Shown here: positions 4,793 through 62,884 of the stretch, one piece after another | How positions within the stretch are numbered: the stretch's first letter is position 1 | How the letters are laid out: every line of letters starts with the position of its first letter | Assembly (NCBI GenBank): GCA_963816685.1 | Contig: CAWFMB010000035.1 | Coordinates: 2,490-66,489 of the forward strand | Source of the DNA: an uncultured Prolixibacteraceae bacterium | GTDB lineage: Bacteria; Bacteroidota; Bacteroidia; Bacteroidales; Prolixibacteraceae | Reading direction: 5' to 3' | DNA: 64,000 bases | Notes under the pieces: generated by a model | What the model was told of the DNA's origin: nothing | Seen by the model: only the letters and a program-made list of their open reading frames with translations | Database searches by the model: none | Translations under genes and position numbers: made by a program

Positions 4793-4901
4793 ATTCCATT
4801 TAAAATTGTTTCAGCAGACAAAATGACCACCAATTAAACTTATGATTATTTAAGAAGCAATACTTTCATCAATTCTTCGTTCATGAATAAAAAACAATTT
4901 C

Positions 4902-23609: not shown

Positions 23610-26600
23610 ATGAAAAAACTTGACTTATTCTTTAAAACATTAAAACAAAGTATTCTTGTACTATTGTTTATTTTATTTGTCAGCCTTACTGCTTTTTCGC
23701 AAAGTGGCACTGCCAATTTTGACTTTCTGGGATTAGCAGGAGGAGGAACCGATGGAAGTGACGGTGTATCCGTTACGATACTGGATTGTAATTCAGTAAT
23801 TACAGATTTTACAGTTGAGCTAACCAGCAACAACTATTCTCACGATCCATACATTGTGAAAATTGTATCGCCTGATGGTACCACTTTTGCTGTAGATGAT
23901 ACGACGCACAAAACCGGAATTCCTTTTACTGTTACATCCATTACAGAACCCGGGGGCGAATGGGCTGTTTTTGTTTCTGAACCTATTTCTCCGATTAGAC
24001 CTACCGGAAACTCAGCAACTGTTCAAATGGATTATGATTATGTTGCCAGTCCGGGAGTTGTAGCGCGTTGCAAAGACGAAATTACCGTTTACATTGATTC
24101 ATTCGGAGTCGGACGAACAAATCCTTTGTTCGTGGATAACGGCTCAACAGGTTGCAACCTTGTTTTAACTATTGACAATACTTATTACGGGTGTCAGGAT
24201 ATTCCTGACGATGTTGTTCATCTTACAGCAACTGATGCAATTTCAAATGAAACTTCAACCTGTACAACAAATGTCGTTGTTCGAGATACGATAAAACCTT
24301 CCGCCAATTGTAAGGATATTACTGTGCAGTTGGATGCCAGCGGAGTTGCATCAATCACCGCAGCTGAAATTGACAATCTTTCAACAGATGGTTGCGGAAT
24401 TGCTTCCACATCCATTGATGTTACAACTTTTGACTGTACAAACATTGGCGCAAACCCTGTGGTTTTAACAGTAACAGACAATAATGGAAATTCACAAACC
24501 TGTACTGCTTCCGTAACTGTAGAAGATGTTACACCACCAACAGCTGTTTGCCAGGATATAACTGTGCAACTGGATGTAAATGGTGAAGCAACCATTGCCG
24601 CAGCAGATTTGGATAACGGTTCTTCAGATTTATGCGGAACAGTGACATTTACAGCTGATGTTACTCAATTTGATTGTACAAACATTGGTGCTAATACAGT
24701 GACTTTAAATGTTGCCGATGAATCGGATAACACCAGCACCTGTACTTCTACCGTTACCGTTGAAAATAACAATACTCCCACTGCAGTTTGTAAAGACATT
24801 ACTGTTCAGCTGGATGTAAACGGTGATGCAACCATTGCTGCAGCGGATATTGACAATGGCTCTTCGGCTGTGTGTAATACCAATCTGACGATTGATGTTT
24901 CACAGTTTGATTGCTCAAATACAGGTCCAAATACAGTTGAATTAACAGTATCGGATAATGATGGCAATTCAAGTACCTGCTCTTCAACTGTTACAGTTGA
25001 AGATAATGTTGTACCTACAGCAGTTTGCAAAGATATAACTGTTCAACTTGATGCAACTGGAGCAGCTACTATTGCTGCGGCTGATATTGACAATGGTTCA
25101 ATGGATGCCTGTGGAGTTGCATCAATTGCAATTAATCCTTCACTGTTTGATTGTGCAGATGTTGGTTCAAATACAGTTACTCTTACAGTAACCGATAACA
25201 ACAACAATACAGCCACCTGTACTTCTACCGTAATGGTTGAAGACACTACAGCACCAACAGCAGTTTGCCAGGATATTACAATTCAACTGGATACAAATGG
25301 TGAAGCAACGATTACAGCTGCTGATGTTGACAATGGATCAACCGATCTTTGCGGAAATGTTACTCTGGATATTGATGTTACTCAATTCGACTGTGCCAGT
25401 GCCGGCGCCAATACCGTAACATTAACAGTAACCGACGAATCAGAAAATACAAGCACCTGTACTTCTACCGTAATGGTTGAAGACACTACAGCACCAACAG
25501 CAGTTTGCCAGGATATTACAGTTCAACTTGACACAAATGGTGAAGCAACAATTACAGCTTCCGATGTCGATAACGGTTCTTCTGATCTCTGCGGGAATGT
25601 CAATTTGGATGTTGATGTTACTCAATTCGACTGTGCCAGTGCCGGCGCCAACATCGTAACATTAACAGTAACCGACGAATCAACAAATACAAGCACCTGT
25701 ACCTCTACCGTTACTGTGGAAAACAACAACATTCCAATAGCTATTTGTATGGACATAACGGTAGAACTCGACGATAATGGCGAAGCAACCATTGCAATGG
25801 AAGATATTGATGGTGGTTCTTCTGCAGTTTGCGCCGATGCAATAGTAATTGAACCGATGCAGTTTGACTGTACAAATGTTGGCTCAAATACTGTTACCCT
25901 TACAATCAACGATTTGCAGGGAAATTCTTCTCAATGTACATCAAATGTTACTGTCAATGACAACACACCTCCGCAGGTAGTTGCAAAAAACATTGAAGTT
26001 TGCCTTGATGATAACGGAAGCTATTCACTCTCTCCTGATGAAGTTGATGCAGGGACACTTGATAATTGTTCAATTCAGGAAATGACTGTTACTCCTGCAG
26101 AATTCAGTTGTGCCGACATCGGCGAAAATGAAGTTACTCTAATGGCAACCGATGCAAATGGCAACTCAGCTTCAGTAACTGTTAACGTAACGGTTAAGGA
26201 TTGTACAGCACCGGTTATTAATTGTTCACCACTTACTGTTTACCTGTATGAAAATGGCAAATATGTACTGACCAAAAAGAACATTCAGGCGATTTCAAAA
26301 GGTAACGATGAAACAGGACTTACTACCGATAATTGTACACCGTATGCTGAAATGGATATCCAGGTGTTCCCGCGCTCGTTTGAATGTGTGCATGTTGGAA
26401 CTCCGGTATCAGTTACCATCTCGGCAACCGATGCTTCAGGAAATACAGGAACCTGCAAGACCACTGTTACTGTACTCGACACGATTTCGCCAGTGGTACA
26501 CTGTGTTGATACTTTAAATGTGTATCTCGATGAAAATGGAAGTGCACGAATTTTTGCAGGAAATCTTGTGGATAAAACTGCCGAAAATGTGGATGATGCC

Positions 26601-27878
26601 TGCTCCACAAATAATACAACAGCAAGCAAAACACGCTTCGACTGCTCGAATGTTGGAGCAAACGTTGTGACACTTTCAAGAACAGATGTAAGCAACAACA
26701 CTTCAACATGTAATTCAGTGGTAATGGTTTACGACACCATTCGCCCTGTCATAGAACCTGTTGCCGATGTTGAAGTTGAAGTTGAAGCTGGAGTTTGTGA
26801 AACTGCCATAACCTATCCGGCATTTACAGTTACTGATAATTGTATTGTAACTCAGGATTTGATTGAAGGCCTTGGAAAAGATGTGATGTTCCCGGTTGGT
26901 ACAACCACTGAAACCTGGGTATTTACAGATAATGGTGGTAATACTGATACAATTTCGTTTCATGTAATTGTTACAGGTGGCGGAAATGCAGCTCCAACAC
27001 TCGATACAATAGAATCGGTTACTGTAACTGATATGGAAATGCAAACAGTAAATGTTCCGTTAACCGGTATTTCATCAGGTATGGATTGCACTGCACAGGA
27101 TGTTACAGTTACAGCTTCAGCTGACAACACTGATCTTGTTACTTCAGTAGCGGTGAATTATACTGCCGGAGATTCAACCGGATCTCTTGATGTTGCTTTC
27201 GACCCTGAAGTTGGTGGTCAATCAGATATAACTGTAACTGTTGAAGATAGTGAAGGCGCTCTTGTTTCGCAAACATTTACATTATTTGTAAACTCCGAAA
27301 ATCATGCACCTGTGCTGGTAATGCCTGTTCCCGATCTTACAGTAAATGCCCTGGAGGTGGTTAGTGTGCCAATAAGCTCTACATTGGGAATTCTTTTTAA
27401 CGACAGCGACGGAGATACATTAACTTATAACCTGATGCGGGAAAATGGTGATGATTTACCTGCCTGGATGTCTATTGAAAATGATATACTAACTGGAACT
27501 CCGGAAATTGCTGATACAGGTTGTGTAACTCTTGTAATTCAGGCTATGGATCCTGACGGGGCAATGGCATCCGATACGTTTGATGTTTGCGTTGATTATA
27601 CAGTTGGCTTAAATCCAATAGCTAAAAATCAATTCGAGGTAAATCTTTATCCTAATCCATCGGGGGGACATGTCAACATCGATTTGAAATCTTCTATAAT
27701 TCAGGATGTCGATCTTTCTGTAATGGATTTAACAGGAAGAGTGGTGCTGCGTAAACAATTCTCTGCAGCCGAACATATTACTTTTGATATGAGCAATAAT
27801 ATCTCAGGGATGTATTTGATAAAAATTGAATCAGGAGGAAATCGAATCCTCAAAAAATTGATTCTCGATCGCAAATAA
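23610..27878 (+). CDS. Giant T9SS-secreted surface/adhesin-like protein (about 12 Cys-containing 80-aa repeats, HYR-like and cadherin/He_PIG-like domains, Por secretion tail)
   Basis: 1422 aa. Signal peptide. Repeats of pattern C.DITVQLD.NGEATI.A.D.DNGS.D.CG....FDC...G.N.VTLTVTD..(N).S.C.S.V.V.D. An HYR-like FPVGTTTETWVFTDNGGN. An NHAPV..DGDTLTY..LPAWM domain. C-terminal NLYPNPSGGHVNI...GMYLIKIESG...KKLIL sorting domain. Confidence 0.85.
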   Translation: MKKLDLFFKTLKQSILVLLFILFVSLTAFSQSGTANFDFLGLAGGGTDGSDGVSVTILDCNSVITDFTVELTSNNYSHDPYIVKIVSPDGTTFAVDDTTHKTGIPFTVTSITEPGGEWAVFVSEPISPIRPTGNSATVQMDYDYVASPGVVARCKDEITVYIDSFGVGRTNPLFVDNGSTGCNLVLTIDNTYYGCQDIPDDVVHLTATDAISNETSTCTTNVVVRDTIKPSANCKDITVQLDASGVASITAAEIDNLSTDGCGIASTSIDVTTFDCTNIGANPVVLTVTDNNGNSQTCTASVTVEDVTPPTAVCQDITVQLDVNGEATIAAADLDNGSSDLCGTVTFTADVTQFDCTNIGANTVTLNVADESDNTSTCTSTVTVENNNTPTAVCKDITVQLDVNGDATIAAADIDNGSSAVCNTNLTIDVSQFDCSNTGPNTVELTVSDNDGNSSTCSSTVTVEDNVVPTAVCKDITVQLDATGAATIAAADIDNGSMDACGVASIAINPSLFDCADVGSNTVTLTVTDNNNNTATCTSTVMVEDTTAPTAVCQDITIQLDTNGEATITAADVDNGSTDLCGNVTLDIDVTQFDCASAGANTVTLTVTDESENTSTCTSTVMVEDTTAPTAVCQDITVQLDTNGEATITASDVDNGSSDLCGNVNLDVDVTQFDCASAGANIVTLTVTDESTNTSTCTSTVTVENNNIPIAICMDITVELDDNGEATIAMEDIDGGSSAVCADAIVIEPMQFDCTNVGSNTVTLTINDLQGNSSQCTSNVTVNDNTPPQVVAKNIEVCLDDNGSYSLSPDEVDAGTLDNCSIQEMTVTPAEFSCADIGENEVTLMATDANGNSASVTVNVTVKDCTAPVINCSPLTVYLYENGKYVLTKKNIQAISKGNDETGLTTDNCTPYAEMDIQVFPRSFECVHVGTPVSVTISATDASGNTGTCKTTVTVLDTISPVVHCVDTLNVYLDENGSARIFAGNLVDKTAENVDDACSTNNTTASKTRFDCSNVGANVVTLSRTDVSNNTSTCNSVVMVYDTIRPVIEPVADVEVEVEAGVCETAITYPAFTVTDNCIVTQDLIEGLGKDVMFPVGTTTETWVFTDNGGNTDTISFHVIVTGGGNAAPTLDTIESVTVTDMEMQTVNVPLTGISSGMDCTAQDVTVTASADNTDLVTSVAVNYTAGDSTGSLDVAFDPEVGGQSDITVTVEDSEGALVSQTFTLFVNSENHAPVLVMPVPDLTVNALEVVSVPISSTLGILFNDSDGDTLTYNLMRENGDDLPAWMSIENDILTGTPEIADTGCVTLVIQAMDPDGAMASDTFDVCVDYTVGLNPIAKNQFEVNLYPNPSGGHVNIDLKSSIIQDVDLSVMDLTGRVVLRKQFSAAEHITFDMSNNISGMYLIKIESGGNRILKKLILDRK
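24040..26745 (+). repeat. Intragenic tandem array of 240-bp (80-aa) domain repeats
   Basis: Exact 240-bp register (for example 25214-25280 is identical to 25454-25520, a 67-nt perfect match; the next copy is at 25694). The central copies are about 89% identical by eye and the outer copies diverge progressively. Confidence 0.85.
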
Positions 27879-50052: not shown

Positions 50053-52422
50053 ATGATAAGATCAATTCAACTATCTGAAATACGGTTTATATCCGTTAAA
50101 ATTCTCCTTCTGCTTATTATCCTTTCTTCCGGAACGATAATTTCAGCACAGGACACAAAAAACGTTCAGGATGTAAAAAATGTCGACGTTAATAAATTGC
50201 CGGATTCAGAAATTCAACGGGCAAGAAAAGCAATGGATGAGGCCGGGCTAACACTTCAACAAGCCATTGAACTCGCACGCCAAAGGGGAGCCACTGAACA
50301 GCAGATTATGGAAATGCGAAAAAGACTGATGCAGACATCCCAAAGAGGCGACACCATTTGGAATGCTCAGCAACTGGAAGGTATGGGTTTGATGCCGCCG
50401 GATGAGTTACCCGATTCCGTACAGCGGCTTAAACAGGAAAAAACAAGCAGAATATTTGGTGCCGATCTGTTTTCCAATGAGAATCTCACTTTTGAACCCA
50501 GTCTTTACATTCAAACCCCTAAAAATTATGAATTGGGAATTGGCGATCAGATCATTATCAACATTTGGGGAAATTCGCAAAATAGTTACCAGCTCACGGT
50601 AAATACAAGCGGGCAAATCATCATTCCCGATGTGGGGCCGGTTTATGTTGCCGGAATGACATTTAATGCTGCTGAAGAAAAAATCAAACAGCGGTTGACT
50701 TCAATTTATGCAGATATGGGCGGAAACAATCCTCAAACCTTTGCTCAGCTGAACATTGGCCGGTTGCGATCAATAAGGGTGAACCTTGTGGGGGAAGTTT
50801 CCACTCCCGGAACTTATACACTTCCGGTAACAGCTACAGTATTTAATGCTCTTTACCTTTCCGGCGGCCCCGACAGCATTGGCTCTTTCCGCTCCATTAA
50901 AGTTATCCGCAACAATAAAATTGCTCAATCGGTGGATATTTATAAATTTCTTGTCGATGCAGATCCTTCTGACAATGTGCAGTTAATGGACCAGGATATT
51001 GTATTGATTCCGCCTATAGAGAAAAGAGTGGAAGCAGTAGGTGAATTCAAACGCACCGGTTTATTCGAAATGAAAGAAGATGAAACAGTGGCAGATTTAA
51101 TTCGTTTTGCCGGCGGTTTTACCGGTAGCGCCTACCTGGCCAGCATTCAGATTCAGCGAAAAACACAGCGGGGTTTGCAAATAATTGACGTTCCGATGGA
51201 TAAAATTAACTCCACAGCGCTAATGAACGGAGATGTAGTCAGCAACGGAAAAATACAGGAACGTTTTGTGAACAGAGTCACTATCAACGGCGCCGTTAAT
51301 CGCCCCGGTGAATATGAATTTACACCGGGAATGTTACTAACCGATTTAATTTATAAAGCCGATAGTCTGAAAGAAAATGCATTTCTCAACAGGGGCCTCA
51401 TCACCCGCCTAAACCCGGATTCTACAACTACATCCATTGCTTTCGATCTTAGAAAAATAATGTCAGGCAAAAGAAATATCACTTTAAAACGGGAAGATAT
51501 GGTATTGATTAAATCGCGCTATGACTTGCAGGAAGAACCATATATCCTTGTGGCAGGAGAAGTGAATGAACCGGGCCAGTTTGATTATTCACAGGAAATG
51601 ACACTTGGTGATGCAATTTTTCTTGCTGGCGGTTTAACCGAAGCTGCCGACAGCACATTTGTGGAAGTGGCAAGGAGGTTAAGCTACAGCGAAGCTGCAG
51701 AACTCTCCGATGATATGGTGCACATTTTTACCTTTAATCTTTCACGCGGATTAAACGTTAAGGAAGAGGATTCCGGTTTTAAACTGCTTCCCTTCGACAG
51801 GGTTGCTGTTCGCCGGGCTCCGGGATTCCGGGAGCAGGCTACGGCAACAGTCAAGGGCGAAGTAAAATATTCGGGCGATTATGCCATAAGCAACAAAAAC
51901 CAGCGCATTTCCGACCTTGTAAAGATGGCAGGTGGTACAACTCCCCAGGCTTATACTGAAGGCGCTTCATTTACACGTAAAACGGAAGAGCTCGGTTATG
52001 AAAATGTAGCCATCAACCTGAATGTTATCATGAACAATCAGGGAAGTGAAAATGATTTGCTCCTGCGCGACGGCGACGAATTAAATGTTCCTGAGTTCAT
52101 GCAGACGGTAAAAGTTTCAGGCAGTGTGCAAAATCCTTTTTCCATTACGTGGGAAGAGGGAAAAAGTCTTTCATATTACATCAATCGTGCCGGCGGTTAC
52201 AGCGCTGATGCAATGGTTAGAAAAACGTATGTAAAATATGCCAACGGTTCCACAGCGACTACTAAAGGGTTATTAAACAGGAGTTATCCTGAAATCAGGC
52301 CGGGCAGCCAGATTGTGGTTCCGCAAAAGCCAGAAAAGGAAAATGTGGGTGTTGGTCAGTGGCTCTCCATTGCCAGTGCTTTTTCTTCCATCGCTGTTGC
52401 CATTGCCGCTGTATTAAGATAA
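50053..52422 (+). CDS. Polysaccharide export protein (Wza-like, multiple SLBB domains)
   Basis: 789 aa. Poly_export segment YELGIGDQIIINIWGN..GQIIIPDVGPVYVAGMT and repeated SLBB-like modules. Confidence 0.85.
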   Translation: MIRSIQLSEIRFISVKILLLLIILSSGTIISAQDTKNVQDVKNVDVNKLPDSEIQRARKAMDEAGLTLQQAIELARQRGATEQQIMEMRKRLMQTSQRGDTIWNAQQLEGMGLMPPDELPDSVQRLKQEKTSRIFGADLFSNENLTFEPSLYIQTPKNYELGIGDQIIINIWGNSQNSYQLTVNTSGQIIIPDVGPVYVAGMTFNAAEEKIKQRLTSIYADMGGNNPQTFAQLNIGRLRSIRVNLVGEVSTPGTYTLPVTATVFNALYLSGGPDSIGSFRSIKVIRNNKIAQSVDIYKFLVDADPSDNVQLMDQDIVLIPPIEKRVEAVGEFKRTGLFEMKEDETVADLIRFAGGFTGSAYLASIQIQRKTQRGLQIIDVPMDKINSTALMNGDVVSNGKIQERFVNRVTINGAVNRPGEYEFTPGMLLTDLIYKADSLKENAFLNRGLITRLNPDSTTTSIAFDLRKIMSGKRNITLKREDMVLIKSRYDLQEEPYILVAGEVNEPGQFDYSQEMTLGDAIFLAGGLTEAADSTFVEVARRLSYSEAAELSDDMVHIFTFNLSRGLNVKEEDSGFKLLPFDRVAVRRAPGFREQATATVKGEVKYSGDYAISNKNQRISDLVKMAGGTTPQAYTEGASFTRKTEELGYENVAINLNVIMNNQGSENDLLLRDGDELNVPEFMQTVKVSGSVQNPFSITWEEGKSLSYYINRAGGYSADAMVRKTYVKYANGSTATTKGLLNRSYPEIRPGSQIVVPQKPEKENVGVGQWLSIASAFSSIAVAIAAVLR

Positions 52423-52531: not shown

Positions 52532-53656
52532 ATGACAGAAGAAAATAAAAAGTCTCCACCAAATACTGTTGAAGAAGATGAAATTGACCTGATTGCCCTG
52601 GCAAAAAACATCTGGAACGGAAGGAAGCTTATCTTCAAAATTGTGTTATTGTTTGCCCTGATTGGATTGGCTGTGGCAATGCTGACACCAAAGGAATTTA
52701 CAGCATCCACCACACTGGTGCCGCAAACATCACAGGGAAGTTCAAAACTAGGAGGATTGTCGTCACTGGCATCCATGGCCGGGTTTAACATAAATATGTC
52801 GCAGGGGGTTACTGAATTGTCCCCGCAGGTTTATCCGCAAATTGTGCAAAGCGTTCCATTTCAACTGGAAATCATGAATACTCCGTTCAAAATTGAAGGC
52901 ATCGATAAACGGGTTACGCTCTATGAATATTACACTGAATACTATAATCCCGGTTTTATTTCCGTCCTTAAAAAATATACCATTGGCCTTCCTGGAGTGA
53001 TTCTAAAGGCTATCAGGGGAGAACAAAAATATTCAGCAGAAATTGCAGAAACGGATACAGTTCAAACTATTCAACTTACTCCAAAACAGGATGCTGTTCG
53101 AAAAATTATTGCAGCAAATATTTCTCTTTCATTAAATGATAAGGAAGGAGTAATCCAACTAAGTTCAACTTTTCACGAACCCAGATTAACAGCGCAGGTA
53201 ACGCAAAAAGCAAAGGAACTGCTTCAGAAATACATAACCGAGTTCAAAGTGGAAAAAGCAACTGCACAAATGAACTTCGTGGAAGAACGGTACGAAGAAA
53301 AGAAAACTGAATTTCAAAAGGCACAGGCTGAACTGGCTTCATTCCGTGATCGCAACAAGAATGTAACCAGTGCAGTTGCCTATACAGAAGAGGAACGCCT
53401 GCAAAATGAATACCAGCTTGCATTTAATGTTTATTCGGAACTGGCCCAGCAACTGGAACAGGCCAGGATTAAAGTTAAGGAAGATACCCCTGTTTTCTCC
53501 ATAATTAAACCGGTTACAGTGCCTCTGGAAAAATCGAAACCCAACCGGCCACTGATTCTGATTATCTGGATTTTTCTTGGAGGGATTATCGGATTGGGTT
53601 GGGTTTTCGGAAGACAGTATTTTTCCACAGTCAGAACCCGCTGGGATGAAGTATAA
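52532..53656 (+). CDS. Wzz-type chain length determinant protein
   Basis: 374 aa. N-terminal DEIDLIALAKNIWNGRKLIFKIVLLFALIGLAVA, a central coiled coil and a C-terminal TM helix. Confidence 0.85.
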   Translation: MTEENKKSPPNTVEEDEIDLIALAKNIWNGRKLIFKIVLLFALIGLAVAMLTPKEFTASTTLVPQTSQGSSKLGGLSSLASMAGFNINMSQGVTELSPQVYPQIVQSVPFQLEIMNTPFKIEGIDKRVTLYEYYTEYYNPGFISVLKKYTIGLPGVILKAIRGEQKYSAEIAETDTVQTIQLTPKQDAVRKIIAANISLSLNDKEGVIQLSSTFHEPRLTAQVTQKAKELLQKYITEFKVEKATAQMNFVEERYEEKKTEFQKAQAELASFRDRNKNVTSAVAYTEEERLQNEYQLAFNVYSELAQQLEQARIKVKEDTPVFSIIKPVTVPLEKSKPNRPLILIIWIFLGGIIGLGWVFGRQYFSTVRTRWDEV

Positions 53657-53716: not shown

Positions 53717-55027
53717 ATGAATCCTACTAAAAACTTTCTTGAAAAAATAGAACAGAATACTGAGGTTGTCGGAGTTATCGGGCTCGGATATGTCGGGCTT
53801 CCGCTGGCAGTTAATTTTGCCGAAGCGAAAGTAAAAGTTATCGGTTTCGATAAAAATCAGGACAAAGTAGACCGGATTAACCGGGGCGACAATTATATCG
53901 GCGACATTCGCGATGCGGTTCTTAAAGAAGTGGTCGATAATGTATCCCTTTCTGCCACTACCGATTTCTCAAGAATGAATGAATGTGATGCACTGCTCAT
54001 TTGCGTCCCCACTCCTCTCGATCGTTTCCGTAAACCGGATATGAGTTACATCGAAAGCGCATGCACCGATATTGGAAGGCACATGAAAACCGGAACATTC
54101 ATCAGTCTCGAAAGCACAACTTATCCAACCACTACCGAAGATTTAATGCTTCCGATAATTGAAAAAGAGAGTGGCCTCAAACACGGTGTTGATTTCTGGC
54201 TGGCTTACTCACCAGAACGTGTCGATCCTGGAAACAAGTCGTTTCACACCCGCAATACACCAAAAGTACTGGGAGCGATGACTGAAGAAGGAAAACAGAT
54301 TGGAGAAGCACTGTATAAAAAGGCAATTGACAACATTCACACCGTCAGCTCACCACGTGTTGCCGAAATGGTAAAAATCCTTGAAAATACTTACCGGCTC
54401 ATCAACATCAGTTTGATTAACGAACTGGCGCTGCTTTCCGGAAAAATGGATATCAACATCTGGGAAGTGATTGAAGCGGCCAAAACAAAACCCTTCGGCT
54501 TCCAGGCATTTTACCCCGGACCGGGAATTGGCGGCCACTGCATCCCCCTCGATCCATTTTACCTGGAGCATATTGCCAAACGGTTCGATTTTGACCTGAG
54601 CATGATTCACGCTGCAGGACATATTAACATGCGGATGCCCCATTACATGTACATAAAAATTGCCACTGCCCTTAACCGGCACAAAAAAGCAGTAAACGGC
54701 AGCAACATCCTGTTCCTCGGTGTTGCCTACAAACCCAATATCAACGACGAGCGCGAATCACCAGCCCTTGAAATTATTGATATAACCCTTCACAAAGGCG
54801 GACTTGCAAAATACCACGACCCGTTCATTCCCCGGATTAAAACACACGAAGGAAATATTCTGAATTCAATCGAGCTGAATGAAGAAACTTTGCAACAGGC
54901 AGATTGTGTGGTGTTAACGACCAATCATGACGCTTTTGATGTGGAATTTATACAACAGCATGCAAAAATGATTGTGGATATGCGGAATATGATTAAGGAA
55001 GGAAACGAAAAGGTATATAAATTGTAG
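53717..55027 (+). CDS. Nucleotide-sugar dehydrogenase (UDP-N-acetyl-hexosamine dehydrogenase type)
   Basis: 436 aa. VIGLGYVGLPLA Rossmann motif and the catalytic-Cys region GPGIGGHCIPLDP. Confidence 0.9.
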   Translation: MNPTKNFLEKIEQNTEVVGVIGLGYVGLPLAVNFAEAKVKVIGFDKNQDKVDRINRGDNYIGDIRDAVLKEVVDNVSLSATTDFSRMNECDALLICVPTPLDRFRKPDMSYIESACTDIGRHMKTGTFISLESTTYPTTTEDLMLPIIEKESGLKHGVDFWLAYSPERVDPGNKSFHTRNTPKVLGAMTEEGKQIGEALYKKAIDNIHTVSSPRVAEMVKILENTYRLINISLINELALLSGKMDINIWEVIEAAKTKPFGFQAFYPGPGIGGHCIPLDPFYLEHIAKRFDFDLSMIHAAGHINMRMPHYMYIKIATALNRHKKAVNGSNILFLGVAYKPNINDERESPALEIIDITLHKGGLAKYHDPFIPRIKTHEGNILNSIELNEETLQQADCVVLTTNHDAFDVEFIQQHAKMIVDMRNMIKEGNEKVYKL

Positions 55028-56131
55028 TTCCTGCTGTACTGGCTTAAGATGACTAACGGCTCGGTAAACTTTTGAATGCTTTTCCCTATATTAGCAGTAT
55101 CAAACTCCCCTTGGAGGCTTGGGGGTAAAAAACGATGGAAAAGGATCATCATAACTCCTCCGCTGCCCCTGACCCCCAAAGGGTGAGGCTAACGCACAAA
55201 AAGCCGATGTATAAATAAAGAAATACATAATATCATAATTCAAAAACGTTTGAATGCTGTTCTCTATATCAGCAGAGTCAAACTCCCCCCTGGGGGCTTG
55301 GGGGTAAAAAAGGAGGAAAATCATCATACCTCCTTCGCTACCCCTGTCCCCCAAGGGGTGAAGCCAACGCACAAAAAGCCGATGTATAAATAAAGAAATA
55401 CATAATATCATAATTCAAAAACGTTTGAATGCTGTTCTCTATATCAGCAGAGTCAAACTCCCCCTTGGGGGCTTGGGGGTAAAAAAAGGAGGAAAATCAT
55501 CATACCTCCTTCGCTACCCCTGTCCCCCAAGGGGTGAAGCCAACGCACAAAAAGCCGATGTATAAATAAAGAAATACATAATATCATAATTCAAAAACGT
55601 TTGAATGCTGTTCTCTATATCAGCAGAGTCAAACTCCCCCTTGGGGGCTTGGGGGTAAAAAAAGGAGAAAAATCATCATACCTCCTTCGCTACCCCTGTC
55701 CCCCAAGGGGTGAAGCCAACACACAAAAAGCCGATGTATAAATAAAAAATACATAATATCATAATTCAAAAACGTTTGAATGCTGTTCTCTATATCAGTA
55801 GTGTCAAACTCCCCCTTGGGGGCTTGGGGGTAAAAAACGATGGAAAAGGATCATCATAACTCCTCCGCTACCCCTGACCCCCAAGGGGTGAAGCCAACGC
55901 ACAAAAGTCCGATGTTGTAAATAAAGAAATACATAATATCGTAATTCAAAAAAATTTGAATGCTGTTCTCTATATCAGCAGAGTCAAACTCCCCCTTGGG
56001 GGCTTGGGGGTAAAAAGAAGGAGAATCATCATCATACCTCTTTCGCTACCCCTGTCCCCCAAGGGGTGAAGCCAACGCACAAAAAGCCGATGTATAAATA
56101 AAGAAATACATAATATCATAATTCAAAAACG

Positions 56132-56777
56132 TTTGAATGCTTTTCCCTATATCAGCAGAGTCAAACTCCCCCTTGGGGGCTGGGGGTAAAAAGAAGGAGA
56201 ATCATCATAATACCTCCTTCGCTACCCCTGTCCCCCAAGGGGTGAAGCTAACGCACAAAAAATAGTAAATAAACCAGGTATTGCAAATTCAACCGCTTTC
56301 CCCTGAAATCTGGTGCAAAATTTCTGCATATGAATGATGAATTAGCCAAATCAATGTATTACGGAGCCACACCTTCAACATTAAAAAAAGCATGGCAACT
56401 TCGTAATAAAATGACATCGGCTGAAGAATTACTCTGGGAAAAATTAAAGGGAAAGCAAATTTGTAACGTAAGGTTCCGCAGACAGCATCCTATATATTTA
56501 TATATTGTTGACTTTTATTGTCATCCTGCAAAATTAGTTATTGAATTGGACGGCAAATATCATTTAAGAACAAAAAAAGAAGATAGGGAAAGAACTGAAC
56601 AATTAAAGTCTCTTAACCTTGATGTAATTCGTTTTACAAACGATAAAGTTGAAACCAATATAAATAAAGTACTTGAAGAAATTACTTTAAAAGTCAAACA
56701 TCGTTTGGAAATCAATTCTTAAGATTTCAAGTGAGTAAGAATAAAGAGTAATCACATAATATCATAATTCAAAAACG
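56132..56777 (+). mobile_element. Long repeat unit carrying DUF559 gene (candidate selfish cassette), copy 1
   Basis: It shares about 130 nt at the 5' end and about 35 nt at the 3' end with the short units. An insert of about 470 bp holds the ORF. The insert is bounded by AAATAAA (56267-56273) and AATAAAG (56740-56746). Unit ends are TTTGAAT ... ATTCAAA. Confidence 0.4.
56330..56722 (+). CDS. DUF559 (Vsr/PD-(D/E)xK-fold) endonuclease-like protein
   Basis: 130 aa. LRNKMTSAEELLWEKLK...FRRQHPIYLYIVDFYCHPAKLVIELDGKYH....D..R...L...LDVIRFTNDKV is the DUF559 signature. Confidence 0.85.
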   Translation: MNDELAKSMYYGATPSTLKKAWQLRNKMTSAEELLWEKLKGKQICNVRFRRQHPIYLYIVDFYCHPAKLVIELDGKYHLRTKKEDRERTEQLKSLNLDVIRFTNDKVETNINKVLEEITLKVKHRLEINS

Positions 56778-57130
56778 TTTGAATGCTTTTCTCTATATCA
56801 GCAGTGTCAAACTCCCCCTGGGGGCTGGGGGTAAAAGAAGGAGAATCATCATAATACCTCCTTCGCTACCCCTGTCCCCCAAGGGGTGAGGCCAACGCAC
56901 AAAAAGCCGATGTTATAAATAAAGAAATACATAATATCATAATTCAAAAACGTTTGAATGCTGTTCTCTATATCAGCAGAGTCAAACTCCCCCTTGGGGG
57001 CTTGGGGGTAAAAAGAAGGAGAATCATCATCATACCTCCTTCGCTACCCCTGTCCCCCAAGGGGTGAAGCCAACGCACAAAAGTCCGATGTTGTAAATAA
57101 AGAAATACATAATATCATAATTCAAAAACG

Positions 57131-57803
57131 TTTGAATGCTTTTCCCTATATCAGCAGAGTCAAACTCCCCCTTGGGGGCTGGGGGTAAAAAGAAGGAGAA
57201 TCATCATAATACCTCCTTCGCTACCCCTGTCCCCCAAGGGGTGAAGCCAACGCACAAAAAATAGTAAATAAACCAGGTATTGCAAATTCAACCGCTTTCC
57301 CCTGAAATCTGGTGCAAAATTTCTGCATATGAATGATGAATTAGCCAAATCAATGTATTACGGAGCCACACCTTCAACATTAAAAAAAGCATGGCAACTT
57401 CGTAATAAAATGACATCGGCTGAAGAATTACTCTGGGAAAAATTAAAGGGAAAGCAAATTTGTAACGTAAGGTTCCGCAGACAGCATCCTATATATTTAT
57501 ATATTGTTGACTTTTATTGTCATCCTGCAAAATTAGTTATTGAATTGGACGGCAAATATCATTTAAGAACAAAAAAAGAAGATAGGGAAAGAATTGAACA
57601 ATTAAAGTCTCTTAACCTTGATGTAATTCGTTTTACAAACGATAAAGTTGAAACCAATATAAATAAAGTACTTGAAGAAATTACTTTAAAAGTCAAACAT
57701 CGTTTGGAAATCAATTCTTAAGATTTCAAAGTGAAGGTAATCACATAAAAAATTAAAGTATAAATAAAAAAGCACATAATATCGTAAATCAAATTCAAAA
57801 AAA
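57131..57803 (+). mobile_element. Long repeat unit carrying DUF559 gene, copy 2
   Basis: Offset by exactly 999 bp from copy 1 through the ORF (57329 versus 56330). The 3' flank is more diverged. Confidence 0.4.
57329..57721 (+). CDS. DUF559 endonuclease-like protein, second copy
   Basis: 130 aa. Differs from the 56330 copy at a single residue (T89I). Confidence 0.85.
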   Translation: MNDELAKSMYYGATPSTLKKAWQLRNKMTSAEELLWEKLKGKQICNVRFRRQHPIYLYIVDFYCHPAKLVIELDGKYHLRTKKEDRERIEQLKSLNLDVIRFTNDKVETNINKVLEEITLKVKHRLEINS

Positions 57804-58230
57804 TCTGAATGCTTTTCCCTATATCAGCAGTGTCAAACTCCCCCTTGGGGGCTGGGGGTAAAAAGAAGGAGAATCATCATCATACTTCCTTCGCTACCCC
57901 TGTCCCCCAAGGGGTGAAGCCAACGCACAAAAGTCCGATGTTGTAAATAAAGAAATACATAATATCGTAATTCAAAAAAATTTGAATGCTGTTCTCTATA
58001 TCAGCAGAGTCAAACTCCCCCTTGGGGGCTTGGGGGTAAAAAAAGGAGGAAAATCATCATACCTCCTTCGCTACCCCTGTCCACCAAGGGGTGAAGCCAA
58101 CGCACAGGGATTTTGGGGTAATCGCTAAAAGATACATAAAGAGAAAAATACAAAAACAAATTCATCATTTTGAAATACTATTCCCAATATAAGGGATTTC
58201 AAACTCCCCCTCCGGGGGTTGGGGGGCTAT

Positions 58231-60036
58231 ATGACCATTGAAGCCTGGCTTACACTCGCCATCCTGCTTTACATTGTAGTAGCATTTCTTACTGAAATGC
58301 TGCGTCCCGGATTGATTCTTTTCAGTGCGGCAGTTATATTTATGGCTACAGGAATCATTACAGCAGAGGAATTGATTGCAGGATTCTCCAACAACGGAGT
58401 AGTTACTATCGTCGTGTTGTTTCTTGTTAATGAAGGGATAAAGCAATCGGGCCTCATTACCCGGCTGGCACAGGCATGGCTTCCCCGTAAGAAAAACCCA
58501 ATGCCCTTTCTGCTTCCCCGGATTATGATTCCGGTGGCTTTTCTTTCAGCATTTCTGAATAACCTGCCGATGGTAGTGAACATCACCCCACTGCTCATTA
58601 AATGGGCCGACCTGATGAAACTTTCTTACAAGAAGTTCCTCATTCCCCTCTCCTATGCCGCTATCTTTGGAGGAATGTGTACACTTATTGGCACATCATC
58701 CAACCTTGTGGTGCATGGATTGATGCTTGAAAACGGATTTCGCGGTTTACACCTGTTCGAACTGGCAAAAGTGGGCGGCTTCATTTCTCTTATCGGCTTT
58801 ATTTATATTGCTGTTTTTGGCAACCTGTTACTTCCCGGTAAAAAGATAAAAATAAGCCAGCAAAATGCAGATGTAAAAGATTATTACTACAACCTTATAC
58901 TTACTTCTGACAGTAAATTTACCGGCCAATCTATTTCAGGAAAACGAATCCCCGGACTAAACGGATTAACAATACAATCCATCGAACGAAACGGAAAGTT
59001 AATTCGACCAGGCAAATTAAATGATTTGAAGTTGCGTGCAGATGACCACATCCTTGTGGCAGGCAGCGCTGACCGCATGAATTATATCCTCGCGCACAAG
59101 GATGTAAGACTAGCAGGAATCGAGTATCTTGAAAACGCTGATCCCGCCAAATTAAAACAATATGAAGCAGTACTCTCGCCCCGTTTTGCCGGTCTTGGAC
59201 AAACAATCAAGGAATACAACTTTTTCGAACATTTTAATGCTGTAGTGCTTGCAGTGCATCGAAATGGCGAACGCATATCTGCCAATCTGAACAACCTGAA
59301 ACTAAAGGTGGGTGACAATGTGGTTTTACTGGCAACAGAAAAGTTTGAAGAGATTTGGAGTACGTCCCGTATTTTTTACCTTGTCAACTATGTGCGCGAT
59401 TACCGGCAGGAAAAAAGCACCCGTAAAAAATGGCTGGCCCTTTTTATTTTACTGGCAATGGTGGCAGGCATTGTTATCAATGAAATTGTCTCCTACGGAT
59501 ACGGCATGCGGCTCAACATCTTCTATTTTGTAGCCTTTGCTGCCATTTTGCTTGTATGGCTGAAAATCCTCCCACACCAGAATTATACAAAGGCGGTGAG
59601 CTGGGATTTCATCGTCAGCATTGCATCGGCTTTTGCTGTAAGCCGCGCCATTCAAAATGCAGGAATGGCAGAAATCCTTGCCAAAGATGCAATCGGAATT
59701 GTGAAGTCACTGGGGCCGGCGGGCGTTTTGGCTATCATTTATCTTTTAACAGCCATACTTACAGAAATAATTACAAACAATGCAGCCGTTGCCCTTGTAT
59801 TTCCCATTGCAGTAGTAGCCGCGCAAATACTGGGTGCCGATGCAAAACCATTTTTTGTAGCCATTGCCATTGCAGGCGCTTCAAGCTTTATGACTGCCAG
59901 GGGATATCGTGCCAACCTCATTATAAAATCCATCGGAAAATATTCCCATCGCGATTTTCTGCTTATTGGTGCCCCAATGCAGGTCATCGCATTTATAATC
60001 AGTGTCTGGCTTATTCCATATTTCTGGAACTTTTAA
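58231..60036 (+). CDS. SLC13/DASS family anion permease with two central TrkA-C domains (candidate sulfate transporter)
   Basis: Transmembrane halves flank two TrkA-C-like segments (..LTIQSIERNGKLIRPG..DHILVAG.. and ..AVVLAVHRNGERI..GDNVVLLAT..). I use the ATG at 58231 (MTIEAWLTL) rather than the track's TTG at 58219. Confidence 0.8.
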   Translation: MTIEAWLTLAILLYIVVAFLTEMLRPGLILFSAAVIFMATGIITAEELIAGFSNNGVVTIVVLFLVNEGIKQSGLITRLAQAWLPRKKNPMPFLLPRIMIPVAFLSAFLNNLPMVVNITPLLIKWADLMKLSYKKFLIPLSYAAIFGGMCTLIGTSSNLVVHGLMLENGFRGLHLFELAKVGGFISLIGFIYIAVFGNLLLPGKKIKISQQNADVKDYYYNLILTSDSKFTGQSISGKRIPGLNGLTIQSIERNGKLIRPGKLNDLKLRADDHILVAGSADRMNYILAHKDVRLAGIEYLENADPAKLKQYEAVLSPRFAGLGQTIKEYNFFEHFNAVVLAVHRNGERISANLNNLKLKVGDNVVLLATEKFEEIWSTSRIFYLVNYVRDYRQEKSTRKKWLALFILLAMVAGIVINEIVSYGYGMRLNIFYFVAFAAILLVWLKILPHQNYTKAVSWDFIVSIASAFAVSRAIQNAGMAEILAKDAIGIVKSLGPAGVLAIIYLLTAILTEIITNNAAVALVFPIAVVAAQILGADAKPFFVAIAIAGASSFMTARGYRANLIIKSIGKYSHRDFLLIGAPMQVIAFIISVWLIPYFWNF

Positions 60037-60296: not shown

Positions 60297-60536
60297 ATGC
60301 TTATCACACCATTTTCTAAACATATATTTTGGTCATATAAAAAGGATGCAGATTTGCCCGATAATATTATTATAAAACAGGTAATTGCATTTGGGGAAAT
60401 TCCTGATCTCCTGCTGATAAAGGATTTATTTTCAAAAGAAAAGATTTATTCTGTACTGGAAAACTGGACAAACAAAGATCAATATAAAAAAAGGATCAAT
60501 TTTATTGAAAAAGTTATCCTCCATGACCAACAATAA
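60297..60536 (+). CDS. Small protein upstream of AbiEii gene (possible cognate partner)
   Basis: 79 aa. The IFWSYKKDADLPDN..IIKQVIAFGEIPDLLLIKDLF pattern resembles the small domain often found beside Bacteroidota AbiEii genes (possibly DUF6922, unverified). Overlaps the next gene. Confidence 0.45.
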   Translation: MLITPFSKHIFWSYKKDADLPDNIIIKQVIAFGEIPDLLLIKDLFSKEKIYSVLENWTNKDQYKKRINFIEKVILHDQQ

Positions 60537-61185
60537 CATAAATACAGACTTTATATCTGAAGGGACACGCAACATTTTTGCAATGCTTGAAAACCAGAAT
60601 TTTATTAAAAAATATACATTGGTGGGAGGCACAGCACTTGCACTTCAAATTGGGCACCGGATGTCTGAAGATTTGGATTTTATTTATGATGGAGATAAAT
60701 TAAATACAACAACAATAAAGAGAAATATGGCGAAAGTCTTCCCTGGGTATAAAATCATTCGCCAGGAAGACGACTGGCATATTGATTTTATAGTTCAAAA
60801 CATTAAAGTAACCTTCTTTTCTTCAGGCGCAATAGTAGTACCTTTTAATATAATTGAACATTCCTTTCAGCATCAAAACATTAATATTTGTCCTGCCAAA
60901 ATAATAGCATCATTAAAAATGGCAGCGATTGCACAAAGAAACACCATTCGCGATTATTACGATCTCTATTTTATAGCCCGTTACAATTTTCCGCTTAAAG
61001 AAATAATTGAACAAACACAACAGCTTATTCCCGGATTATCACCGGTTACCTACACCGAAACACTTGTTTATACCGATGATATTGATGAAAACTCAATCCG
61101 TGAGCATTTAAACCCCAAAGAACAGATTACTAAAACTGAAATTGCACACTGGTTTGTTGAAGAACTAAAACGAATTATAACATAA
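60523..61185 (+). CDS. Nucleotidyltransferase AbiEii/AbiGii toxin family protein
   Basis: LVGGTALALQIGHRMSEDLDF is the characteristic motif. The track ORF begins at a TTG at 60505; the first ATG is at 60523. Confidence 0.75.
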   Translation: MTNNNINTDFISEGTRNIFAMLENQNFIKKYTLVGGTALALQIGHRMSEDLDFIYDGDKLNTTTIKRNMAKVFPGYKIIRQEDDWHIDFIVQNIKVTFFSSGAIVVPFNIIEHSFQHQNINICPAKIIASLKMAAIAQRNTIRDYYDLYFIARYNFPLKEIIEQTQQLIPGLSPVTYTETLVYTDDIDENSIREHLNPKEQITKTEIAHWFVEELKRIIT

Positions 61186-61322: not shown

Positions 61323-62186
61323 ATGGAAAAAAACAATAATCTTAATAATTGCACATTCCCTTCTTCTCCCGTTTCCCGGAAGTCTGGGGAAAGCTTACCT
61401 CTTATTAATACTGCAATTCAAGCCGCCATCAAAGCCGGAAAAGAAATTTTATCCATCTACAATGATCCGCAGTCCGATTTTTCCATCGAGCGAAAAGCAG
61501 ACAATTCACCGCTGACAATTGCCGATAAAGCCAGTCACCGGATAATCAATGAATTGTTGATGGCAACAAGCCTTCCGGTTCTAAGTGAAGAAGGAAAGGA
61601 AATCCCCTATGCCGAACGTAAAAAATGGGAATCCTTTTGGCTGGTCGATCCACTGGATGGCACAAAGGAATTTATTAAACGAAATGACGAATTTACAGTT
61701 AACATTGCCTTGATAACCAACGGGAAACCGGAGATGGGTGTAATTTACGTACCGGTTACCGGCGCATTGTATGTTGGAATCACCGGAACCGGAGCCTGGA
61801 AGCTTGAAAATGCAACTGACAATTCAGTTTTTGACACCCTGCAGCAATCAGGTGAAAAATTAACAGGAAACGTCCCGCATGATAAATATACAGTAATCGG
61901 AAGCCGGTCGCACAGGAATGAAGAAACAAACCAATACATCGACAAGCTTCGGGAAAAACATCCGCAACTTGAAATCATTTCAAGGGGAAGTTCACTTAAA
62001 ATCTGCCAGGTTGCGGAAGGTCTTGCCGACGAATACCCCCGCTTTGGTCCCACCATGGAATGGGATACAGCCGCCGGCCATGCCATCGCCAACGCCGCAG
62101 GAAAACACCTTTGGTTAACAGATTATTCACAGGAATTAAATTATAATAAAGAAAACCTGCTCAATCCATTCTTCATCGTGAAGTAA
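61323..62186 (+). CDS. cysQ: 3'(2'),5'-bisphosphate nucleotidase
   Basis: 287 aa. Inositol monophosphatase fold motifs LSEE, WLVDPLDGTKEF and WDTAAGHAI. Confidence 0.85.
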   Translation: MEKNNNLNNCTFPSSPVSRKSGESLPLINTAIQAAIKAGKEILSIYNDPQSDFSIERKADNSPLTIADKASHRIINELLMATSLPVLSEEGKEIPYAERKKWESFWLVDPLDGTKEFIKRNDEFTVNIALITNGKPEMGVIYVPVTGALYVGITGTGAWKLENATDNSVFDTLQQSGEKLTGNVPHDKYTVIGSRSHRNEETNQYIDKLREKHPQLEIISRGSSLKICQVAEGLADEYPRFGPTMEWDTAAGHAIANAAGKHLWLTDYSQELNYNKENLLNPFFIVK

Positions 62187-62278: not shown

Positions 62279-62884
62279 ATGAACATCTACCCCACCTTCG
62301 ACAAAATAAAAGATCGCCAGGCAAAGGAAATCTACCTGAAGCAACGGGCAAAAGTCATCTGGTTCACTGGATTAAGTGGTTCCGGAAAAACCACCCTGGC
62401 CAGCCTGCTGGAAAAACGGTTGTTCGAACTCAACTATTTCTGCCAGATACTCGATGGCGACAATGTTCGCTCAGGAATTAACAAAAACCTGAAATTTACA
62501 GAAGAGGACCGCATGGAAAACATCCGGCGCATTGCCGAAGTCTCGAAGCTTTTTATGAACTGCGGCATCATTCTCATCTGTGCATTTATCAGCCCCACCC
62601 GTAAAATGCGAAGGATGGCCCGCGAAATCATTGGGGAAAAAGATTTCCTGGAGATTTACGTAAATACACCGCTGGAAGTCTGCGAACAACGCGATCCAAA
62701 AGGACTATATAAAAAAGCACGGACAGGAGAATTAAAACATTTTACCGGAATCTCCTCCCCTTTTGAAGCGCCGGAACATCCTTTTGTGGAAATAGACAAC
62801 ACAAAACCCGATCTTGATAATACAGTTACCGGCTTACTACGAAAAATCATTCCTGAAATAAAGTTTGAACCAGCTATAAATTAA
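62279..62884 (+). CDS. cysC: Adenylyl-sulfate (APS) kinase
   Basis: 201 aa. P-loop GLSGSGKTT, LDGDNVR, and FISP motifs. Confidence 0.95.
   Translation: MNIYPTFDKIKDRQAKEIYLKQRAKVIWFTGLSGSGKTTLASLLEKRLFELNYFCQILDGDNVRSGINKNLKFTEEDRMENIRRIAEVSKLFMNCGIILICAFISPTRKMRRMAREIIGEKDFLEIYVNTPLEVCEQRDPKGLYKKARTGELKHFTGISSPFEAPEHPFVEIDNTKPDLDNTVTGLLRKIIPEIKFEPAIN

Follow-up and report, generated by a model that had tools for sequence, protein, structure and literature searches.

DUF559 genes embedded in a tandem array of GC-rich palindromes in a Prolixibacteraceae polysaccharide locus: a possible long-resident selfish cassette system

Why should a small nuclease-like gene sit, twice over, inside a tandem array of hairpin-forming repeats in a polysaccharide locus? 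The question is raised by a stretch of 64,000 nt (referred to below as the window) from an uncultured Prolixibacteraceae bacterium (GCA_963816685.1, contig CAWFMB010000035.1, positions 2,490-66,489 of the forward strand), in which two near-identical genes of the DUF559 family are embedded in such an array. A first-pass annotation of the window had likened the gene-bearing and gene-less repeat units to an autonomous and a non-autonomous form of one mobile element. We find that the array is a tandem, REP-like (repetitive extragenic palindromic) GC-rich interrupted palindrome, which fills the space separating the conserved export/precursor genes of a polysaccharide operon from the gene that comes next. 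Array and embedded DUF559 genes may together constitute a single selfish cassette system of long residence, in which unequal crossover multiplied the gene-less hairpins, and we would give this reading an even chance of being right.

Unit borders were set by splitting the sequence at TTTGAATGC. Unit alignment, Tandem Repeats Finder (TRF) and repeat-family analysis delimited a plus-strand array of 12 hairpin-bearing units at 55071-58169, with units starting at 55071, 55249, 55424, 55600, 55775, 55955, 56132, 56778, 56953, 57131, 57804, and 57981. Ten of these are short units of 175-189 nt (typically ~176 nt) arranged head-to-tail, and two are long (56132-56777, 646 nt; 57131-57803, 673 nt), the order being six short, one long, two short, one long, two short, and a partial unit; TRF reported a period of 176 with 6.8 copies and 92% matches. 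The partial unit (58170-58235, 66 nt, plus strand) is degenerate, consists of a unit head and the 5' arm CCCCCTCCGGGGGTTGGGGGG, and adjoins the ATG of the downstream transporter gene (58231) within ~4 nt, so that the array with its partial unit spans ~3 kb (55071-58235). The arm motif had 12 matches in the 64-kb window, every one of them in the array, against 0 expected from 100 shuffles. Most units begin with TTTGAAT and end with ATTCAAA, a feature initially ascribed to all of them; the exceptions are the unit at 57804, which begins with TCTGAAT, and the last unit (57981), the tail of which has diverged. The interpretation of these ends as 7-bp terminal inverted repeats had to be abandoned: where a unit of a tandem array starts is a matter of choice, and ATTCAAAAACGTTTGAAT is a palindrome at the unit junction, which the units of the related loci L228, L001, L002, and L221 (described below) lack.

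Each unit carries a GC-rich hairpin of ~75 nt built in three tiers. Folding of the representative copy (55460-55534, plus strand) gave an outer stem in which CCCCCTTGGGGG pairs with CCCCCAAGGGG, a 3x3 internal loop (CTT/TGT), an inner stem pairing GGGGGT with ACCCC, and a loop of ~35 nt with its own tip stem (AGGAGG/CCTCCT). The 5' arm reads CCCCCTTGGGGG-CTT-GGGGGT and the 3' arm ACCCC-TGT-CCCCCAAGGGG, with CAAACT-CCCCC...GGGG-TGAAGC at the base of the hairpin. The other hairpins are located at 55107-55183, 55285-55358, 55636-55710, 55811-55888, 55991-56066, 56168-56242, 56814-56886, 56989-57064, 57167-57241, 57840-57914, and 58017-58091. Calculated stability was far above that of shuffled sequences on both strands, whether the sequence was folded as RNA (-60.7 kcal/mol, z -6.5) or as DNA (-30.5 kcal/mol, z -5.7).

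Some details of the hairpin are recorded here in their own right. At its tip (55485-55520, with equivalents in every unit), a perfect Shine-Dalgarno (SD)-like AAGGAGG pairs with ACCTCCTT, the same 8-mer as the anti-SD of 16S rRNA; the tip is not followed by a start codon, and the AAGGAGG/ACCTCCTT pairing is particular to the window genome, the loop in L228 being different. The centre of the 5'-arm palindrome varies between CTTGG and CCTGG (55285-55296 and 56814-56824 in the window, as well as L221, L228, and L032), the 3' arm constantly reading CCAAGG. CCTGG is a CCWGG (Dcm-type) site and CTTGG its deamination product, which is curious beside a Vsr-fold gene, although the coincidence is weakened by the unrelated palindromes of other lineages. 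The idea that the hairpin's internal loop presents a Vsr-type T:G mismatch was dropped because its sequence varies between genomes (CTT/TGT, CC/TTT, CT/TAA).

The two long units match the short ones over their first ~131 nt, as had been described, and over their last ~24-28 nt, somewhat less than the ~35 nt originally given. Each carries, as annotated, a 130-aa open reading frame (ORF) of the DUF559 family (Pfam PF04480, E=8e-35) on the plus strand (copy 1, 56330-56722; copy 2, 57329-57721). We verified that the ORFs lie 999 bp apart and differ by a single base, C266T, corresponding to T89I in copy 2 relative to copy 1. The proposed higher-order repeat of one long and two short units was equally borne out: its two 999-bp copies span 56132-58129 (plus strand), with 943/999 positions identical between 56132-57130 and 57131-58129, and a block framed as short, short, long (55775-56777 versus 56778-57803) is identical at 971/1026 positions. 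The two DUF559 copies are the outcome of one recent duplication of the 999-bp block via unequal crossover.

The borders of the ORF-bearing insert are less regular. The A/T words AAATAAA (56267-56273) and AATAAAG (56740-56746) are present as annotated; the target-site duplication that they were thought to represent is not convincing, the word being of low complexity. On the left, the insert is bordered by the post-hairpin segment GTGAAGCTAACGCACAAAAAATAGTAAATAAA (56242-56273, plus strand), found again at 57241-57272 in the second long unit. The 3' junctions differ between the two long units, with a diverged second copy of the post-hairpin segment (GTGAAGGTAATCACATAAAAAATTAAAGTATAAATAAA; 57731-57768, plus strand) lying 3' of ORF copy 2 and a shorter, rearranged version at 56730-56759 in the first long unit. 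A direct repeat of ~20-38 nt, GTGAAGC.AACGCACAAAAA...TAAATAAA, brackets the insert of the second long unit (p=0.004 versus shuffles). A derivation of the long unit as a short unit plus a decayed gene-bearing hairpin was tried and dropped, its 5' side giving p values of 0.39-0.94 against shuffles.

What kind of protein do these genes encode? It is a single 130-aa domain that matches PF04480 with 119.4 bits (cut-off 20.6) over profile positions 5-107 of 109, NCBIfam PRK09767 at E=1.5e-21, under the equivalog cut-off of that model, and, by sequence, the uncharacterised DUF559 structure PDB 3HRL at E=1.4e-17. Residues D61, E72, D74, and H78 were invariant in 26 and in 40 homologues, the last three lying in the stretch I-E72-L-D74-G-K-Y-H78; R25, T29, E32, W36, R51, Q52, R88, and N104 were invariant as well. 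With all catalytic residues kept, the protein is predicted to be a Vsr-fold PD-(D/E)XK nuclease. An AlphaFold2 model (predicted local distance difference test score, pLDDT, 87) was matched by Foldseek to 3HRL (E=1e-7, template modelling (TM) score 0.90) and to both chains, A and B, of the I-Bth0305I catalytic domain (3R3P; E=4e-4 to 9e-4, probability 1.0, TM 0.75-0.79). The match to E. coli Vsr (1VSR) was weak (E=0.43), and weaker matches included Vsr-like RAP-domain proteins of mitoribosomes. Apart from 3HRL, the nearest solved fold to the model is that of I-Bth0305I, a homing endonuclease that cleaves a 14-bp pseudopalindrome as a homodimer (PMC3239194), and a survey of PD-(D/E)XK enzymes puts Vsr, DUF559, and I-Bth0305I in one group (PMC3424549). 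A full-text literature search for 'DUF559' returned no mobility role, and a comparison with PADLOC defence-system families gave no match beyond noise.

Is the association between gene and array recent or old? The closest relative retrieved, L228, was reached via the dehydrogenase gene that flanks the array upstream (88% aa identity). Its order is dehydrogenase, a partial unit plus four full 181-nt units, DUF559, 1.5 units, and transporter; the transporter gene starts 20 nt after a 5' arm, an arrangement like that of the window, and the left border of the ORF is the same in both, just after the block 3' of the 3' arm (GAAGCC.CGCAC). Nucleotide identity between the two loci is 78% for the dehydrogenase, 73% for the transporter, 72% for DUF559, and 67% for the whole repeat unit, rising to ~90% for the arms with ~10 nt of flank, with loop and A/T spacer not alignable. 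The palindrome centre, TT/AA in the window versus T/A in L228, has changed in a compensatory manner in both arms. Within each of the two genomes, units are 88-99% identical.

The comparison with L228 points to old residence, to concerted evolution, and to constraint on the arms rather than on the TTTGAAT ends. Because DUF559 is orthologous in L228 and has diverged like its neighbours, we regard gene and array as old residents inherited with the locus. Recent transposition is supported neither by this orthology nor by the two window genes, which are one segmental duplication. The array evolves in concert within a genome, with copy number shifting between genomes, and the hairpin arms with ~10 nt of flank emerge from the alignment as the conserved, constrained part, the loop, the A/T spacer, and the TTTGAAT ends being unconserved.

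The same arms accompany DUF559 beyond this pair. Nine loci of the clade carry the gene (the window, L228, L001 from Tangfeifania, L002/L003 from two Draconibacterium strains, L032 from a Prolixibacteraceae metagenome-assembled genome, L041 from Maribellus, L112, L217, and L221), and in 9/9 the arms lie within ~100 nt of it, in keeping with the earlier expectation that DUF559 would recur beside the same hairpin. The accompanying expectation of TTTGAAT/ATTCAAA flanks failed, these being absent from the units of L228 and of other genera. All nine loci belong to Wza/Wzc/dehydrogenase/epimerase clusters, and in each of them DUF559 points the same way as the operon. Where the ORF sits with respect to the hairpin varies: it lies within the hairpin (5' arm-ORF-3' arm) in L001 and L041, with the L001 stop codon falling in the 3' arm; directly after a 5' arm and ahead of another 5' arm-loop-3' arm in L002, L003, and L221, the last with a ~40-nt direct duplication flanking the ORF; and between complete hairpins in the window, L228, and L112. 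Gene-less hairpins occur in the window, L228, L158, and L042 (five units at a contig end, beside Wzi/Wza), and solitary arm copies are found elsewhere in one Draconibacterium chromosome (L116). Two loci reached via the dehydrogenase alone, L229 (Mariniphaga sediminis) and L230 (Prolixibacter), have neither DUF559 nor arms. A scan of a genome collection with CCCCTTGGGGGNNNGGGGTA matched at least 117 stretches, many of which, from GC-rich phyla, are fortuitous, and a viral-contig scan with the arm pattern gave 16 single matches, presumably due to chance, and no phage link.

Other repeats were also seen. One places the same GC core, CCCCTTGGGGGTCAGGGGTA, in the loop of a hairpin whose arms are TTCTGAATTTCAGTGTTT/AAACACTGAAATTCAGAA, and is present at several loci of one genome; this CCCCTTGGGGGTCAGGGGTA-loop repeat was found in L021, L039, L043, L064, L082, L085, and L130 (Bacteroidales metagenome genomes) and in L072 (Salinivirgaceae), where two direct copies of the CCCCTTGGGGGTCAGGGGTA type, 922 bp apart, flank an opposite-strand DUF559 gene. 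Separately, a GC-rich structured segment, TCTCCCCWTTTAGGGGGAGATGCC...GGCAGAGGGGG, is conserved in two genomes, where it lies in an enlarged hairpin loop (L003 2140-2235) and at the 3' end of DUF559 (L217 4405-4500).

Does the association extend to more distant members of the family? A protein-based scan of metagenome contigs yielded 80 loci with DUF559 relatives at 37-52% identity, of which 71 genes were scored for flanking inverted repeats by the best pairing of the 140 nt upstream with the stretch from -40 to +110 nt around the stop codon. Scores of at least 26 were reached by 25/71 DUF559 genes (35%), compared with 2/248 shifted positions (0.8%) and 3/117 other ORFs of the same loci (2.6%; Mann-Whitney p=1.8e-12), which extends the link to inverted repeats well beyond the clade. 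Perfect palindrome stems of at least 8 bp were present in 57% of upstream and 33% of downstream flanks, versus 3.4% of controls. The arm sequences are lineage-specific and share a common design, a short GC-rich palindrome with a C-run or G-run; they hug the ORF, the downstream arm often overlapping the stop codon. Such cassettes are wedged in unrelated operons, between etfA and an acyl-CoA dehydrogenase gene, fixH and dsbD_2, nrfH and nrfA, argG and argC, and an ABC ATPase and its permease. A published analysis of inverted-repeat-based predicted inversions reported enrichment among the affected genes of the annotations 'DUF559 domain-containing protein' (odds ratio 14.3) and 'endonuclease domain-containing protein' (odds ratio 9.6), left uninterpreted by its authors (PMC9881135, Table 1); this enrichment fits the flanking repeats found here around DUF559.

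The argG-argC site provides the clearest view of such an insertion. In two Prevotella-like contigs (L168 and L205), DUF559 lies within a 21-bp inverted repeat, AGCCTACCCCCAGCCCCTCCC...GGGAGGGGCTGGGGGTAGGCT, which begins 2-4 nt after the argG stop codon. The empty site, in 24 contigs examined (including L222-L226), is a 64-nt spacer without arms, next to an ArgG 93% identical to that of L168. Translation of the filled allele runs in frame through the right arm, giving argC a new N-terminus (MNEYSKTDTHSPLLLGGAGGRLSV-GILGAAGYTGG, versus MIKI-GILGAAGYTGG in the empty allele). To judge from these alleles, the arms clearly arrive with DUF559 and nothing else, and the downstream gene is spared. The presence or absence that the first-pass annotation proposed to look for between strains was, in this form, seen across species at a conserved site in distant Prevotella relatives; in the window's own lineage, the one orthologous locus found (L228) has the gene.

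The recurrence of DUF559 with palindromic repeats in operons suggests a so far undescribed kind of selfish element. How might it work? We tentatively propose that DUF559 acts on the hairpin arms, a possibility that we consider less probable than the common residence of gene and array as one system. A DUF559 dimer would recognise the palindrome at the core of the arms (CCCCCTTGGGGG in the window), in duplex form or extruded as a hairpin, and nick or cut it; recombinational repair between units would then homogenise the array and expand or contract it, and would occasionally copy a gene-bearing unit to a new site in a homing-like spread. The short units would be gene-less copies of the same palindrome, comparable to REPINs (REP doublets forming hairpins) or miniature inverted-repeat transposable elements (MITEs). 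More doubtful still is the generalisation that this DUF559 subfamily comprises the cognate enzymes of REPIN-like GC-rich interrupted palindromes in Bacteroidota and beyond, which would recognise the pseudopalindromic core of their own repeats and, by break-induced recombination, maintain, homogenise, and occasionally spread the cassette and its gene-less hairpins, inserting 'politely' into operons.

Several observations weigh against a selfish cassette system. In the window and in L228 the ORFs lie between complete hairpins and not within one, and a decayed 5' arm upstream of the window ORF was not supported (p ~0.4). The arms are not specific to DUF559, because toxin-antitoxin cassettes share them: the arm family also flanks a nucleotidyltransferase/HEPN pair in L002, and a ParE pair in L109 lies between direct repeats containing the arm. 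DUF559 is as diverged as its neighbours in L228, with no recent mobility seen in the lineage, and the arm copies of the window are limited to one locus within the 64 kb. Among the distant DUF559 genes, ~65% have no clear flanking repeat. At argG-argC, the filled and empty Prevotella alleles belong to different species, and the filled allele replaces the whole spacer and the first argC codons, with no target-site duplication.

A selfish system of this kind would share features with several described ones. REPIN-RAYT systems combine REP doublets with a REP-associated tyrosine transposase (PMC3116915, PMC3337134), and the resemblance lies in one small nuclease-type gene accompanied by short GC-rich inverted palindromes, in gene-less doublets that form hairpins, in vertical inheritance and long residence, and in repeats that evolve as a within-genome population. 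Unlike in REPIN-RAYT, the enzyme has a Vsr/PD-(D/E)XK fold and is not a Y1 HUH transposase, the copies are in tandem at one locus (within the 64 kb) instead of dispersed in hundreds, and the arms also flank toxin-antitoxin cassettes. Homing endonucleases of the Vsr-like 'EDxHD' family, represented by I-Bth0305I (PDB 3R3P; PMC3239194), share the Vsr-like catalytic domain and include the best structural match besides 3HRL; like their genes, DUF559 is a small nuclease ORF inserted without disrupting host genes and, to judge from argG-argC in Prevotella, perhaps sporadic at a conserved site. It differs in being free-standing and intergenic, not housed in a group I intron or intein (Rfam gave no intron match), in its E-x-D-x3-H motif in place of EDxHD, in being a single 130-aa domain that lacks the extra DNA-binding region, and in having flanking inverted repeats of its own.

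MITEs and small insertion sequences with terminal inverted repeats are exemplified by Correia elements and by Chunjie, which is inserted within an operon. Here, too, short hairpin units lie intergenically in unbroken operons and occur in gene-bearing and gene-less versions. In contrast to pairs of MITEs and insertion sequences, however, no DDE, HUH, or serine/tyrosine transposase is present, DUF559 being the sole ORF of the element; a convincing target-site duplication is lacking, the 7-bp ends are not conserved, and the units stand head-to-tail in tandem.

The strongest rival explanation, which we nonetheless consider unlikely, is that the hairpins serve these polysaccharide loci generally as cassette junctions or recombination hot spots, either for a recombinase whose gene lies elsewhere, in the manner of an integron, or for homologous exchange, DUF559 being one passenger among the toxin-antitoxin, AbiE, and GIY-YIG cassettes gathered there. 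The sharing of arms with the nucleotidyltransferase/HEPN and ParE pairs speaks for it, as do the PIN, PemK, YoeB, AbiEii, GIY-YIG, and HicA cassettes that gather at the same position in relatives, the differing cassette order of L002 and L003 (two strains from one sample), with breakpoints at arms, and the copies of the dehydrogenase 3' end that flank cassettes in L217 and L230. The layout further recalls integron arrays, including integrase-less ones, in its co-oriented, apparently promoterless small cassettes, many of them toxin-antitoxin genes; attC sites are likewise imperfect palindromes of 60-140 nt with an internal bulge between cassettes, and the 3' arm-spacer-5' arm segment (105-120 nt), which is also foldable, has the size of one. 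Unlike in integrons, however, R/L boxes (GTTRRRY/RYYYAAC) are absent from the hairpin base, the gene lies inside the hairpin in several genomes, and ten window units enclose nothing. Ten large ORFs scanned elsewhere in the window (3.6-48 kb) were housekeeping genes and included no recombinase, invertase, or integrase, nor was an integrase or recombinase among the annotated genes flanking the array. Moreover, beyond the clade it is mostly DUF559 that has the inverted repeats (35%, against 2.6% of other ORFs), and in Prevotella they come with this gene alone.

The dehydrogenase fragments deserve description of their own. Duplicated pieces of the gene's 3' end border cassettes at L217 3210-3668 and ~4500-4660, on both sides of DUF559, and at L230 5539-5925, upstream of the full gene, which suggests cassette gain by recombination using the dehydrogenase 3' end as a homology arm.

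A role at the RNA level appears improbable. The hairpins would in that case be elements of processing or stability of the polycistronic mRNA, such as RNase III sites or blocks to 3'-exonucleases, or the repeat RNA would be the partner of the protein as in type III toxin-antitoxin systems, with DUF559 binding or cutting RNA. Tandem repeats upstream of a small nuclease gene do resemble the layout of ToxIN, in 9/9 clade loci the array and the ORFs run in the direction of the operon, and the RNA form of the hairpin folds very stably. The weaker fold matches, moreover, include Vsr-like RAP-domain mitoribosome proteins, one of which is reported to act on RNA (PMC11879112). Against this, Rfam in E-value mode returned for 54800-58400 only sub-threshold miRNA-like hairpin matches and no known RNA family, intrinsic-terminator-like sites were looked for in the array and none was seen, and the C.A mismatch that recurs at the centre of the palindrome (CCTGG versus CCAAGG) disrupts the sense RNA. 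On the sense strand, G.T mismatches did not exceed A.C mismatches in the inverted repeats flanking 31 DUF559 genes (50 versus 61, p=0.34). The protein is DUF559, not a ToxN/AbiQ-type RNase, and the units, at 176 nt and with no terminator-like site, also differ from those of ToxIN. A sigma-70 scan gave weak recurring minus-strand matches in every unit, under a model uninformative for Bacteroidota promoters.

Could DUF559 simply be an ordinary host nuclease of Vsr-like mismatch repair, sharing a dispensable intergenic zone with unrelated REP-like repeats and duplicated in plain tandem? Caulobacter VsrA, which contains DUF559, is a predicted T:G mismatch nuclease unlinked to its methyltransferase gene and is described as behaving like a Vsr-type nuclease (PMC12907096); the window gene has the same domain family and catalytic residues and is equally solitary, it is inherited vertically with its neighbours, and the 999-bp block duplication requires no mobility. 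Yet flanking palindromes or repeat arrays are not reported for the Vsr and VsrA genes, and E. coli Vsr was a weak structural match. The association, moreover, recurs in all clade loci and in a third of the distant homologues with other arm sequences and in unrelated operons, gene and arms are carried together by the filled argG-argC allele and lacking together from the empty one, and the arms are better conserved than the neighbouring genes, all of which makes this explanation quite improbable.

Finally, polysaccharide loci of Bacteroidota are classic targets of DNA inversion, and the enrichment of DUF559 among predicted programmed inversions would favour inverted repeats that mark an invertible segment, for phase variation of the polysaccharide operon or of DUF559, but we regard this as highly improbable given the constant orientation of DUF559 relative to the operon (9/9 clade loci), the lack of inversion between the co-occurring strains L002 and L003 and of an invertase among the scanned window ORFs, and the ~35 nt enclosed by most hairpins, too short for a switch.

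The genes around the array are all on the plus strand and form a polysaccharide locus. Upstream lie a Wza-like gene (50053-52422), a Wzz-like gene (52532-53656), and the flanking nucleotide-sugar (UDP-N-acetyl-hexosamine) dehydrogenase gene (53717-55027; Pfam and NCBIfam); the downstream flank is a CitMHS/DASS-family anion transporter gene with TrkA_C domains (58231-60036). The transporter gene is followed by a DUF6922 (79 aa, weak match) and AbiEii (226 aa) pair at 60297-61185, a 287-aa ORF that is CysQ-like by eye (61323-62186), and a 201-aa ORF resembling, also by eye, adenosine 5'-phosphosulfate (APS) kinase (62279-62884). The nearest homologues of the dehydrogenase and of DUF559 belong to Prolixibacteraceae (Mariniphaga, Tangfeifania, Draconibacterium, Sunxiuqinia, and Prolixibacter). 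Elsewhere in the window, 240-nt tandem repeats (2.5-2.9 copies, 81-84% matches) at 25013-25793, within a 1422-aa ORF (23610-27878), are probably repeated protein domains.

Other small genes turn up in the equivalent region of relatives. In Mariniphaga sediminis the DUF6922/AbiEii pair also comes after the dehydrogenase gene (L229 7666-8594), and in Maribellus the DUF559 cassette is followed by an AbiEii gene (L041 4136-4810); the pair has the look of a passenger cassette that keeps recurring at the hot spot. In L229, the equivalent hot spot beyond the dehydrogenase gene is taken up by a 94-aa GIY-YIG nuclease ORF (8671-8955), another small selfish-type nuclease in the place of DUF559. In Prolixibacter sp. 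SD074 (L230 4354-4860), a 168-aa ORF with a weak Y1_Tnp (IS200/RAYT-like) match sits amid HicA, DUF433/DUF5615, and MarR cassettes just upstream of the dehydrogenase gene. Tangfeifania (L001) has unrelated CACAGTG/CACTGTG palindrome repeats (4813-4844, 5294-5345, 5730-5775, and 6347-6414), which bracket a 146-aa ORF and a PDDEXK_3 (GxxExxY-type) ORF between polysaccharide synthesis genes.

The very large DUF559 family consists of small nucleases to which hardly any biology has been assigned, and the link to palindromes, the constraint on the repeat above that on neighbouring genes, and the insertion in conserved operons turn a vague annotation into a testable system, with the palindromic cores as candidate substrates, both as duplex (CAAACTCCCCCTTGGGGGCTTGGGGGTAAAA, CGCTACCCCTGTCCCCCAAGGGGTGAAGCC) and as hairpin. 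If DUF559 proteins of this subfamily are indeed the cognate enzymes of REPIN-like palindromes, hairpin repeats would have a mobility system that needs no HUH or DDE enzyme, and DUF559 would gain a function. Should the nuclease act on its own flanks, bacterial genomes would have a new way of creating and keeping hairpin repeats. Such action would also explain the odd G/P-rich peptide extensions that arise where arms are translated as part of neighbouring genes, and might be behind some of the plasticity at the hot spot downstream of polysaccharide export genes.

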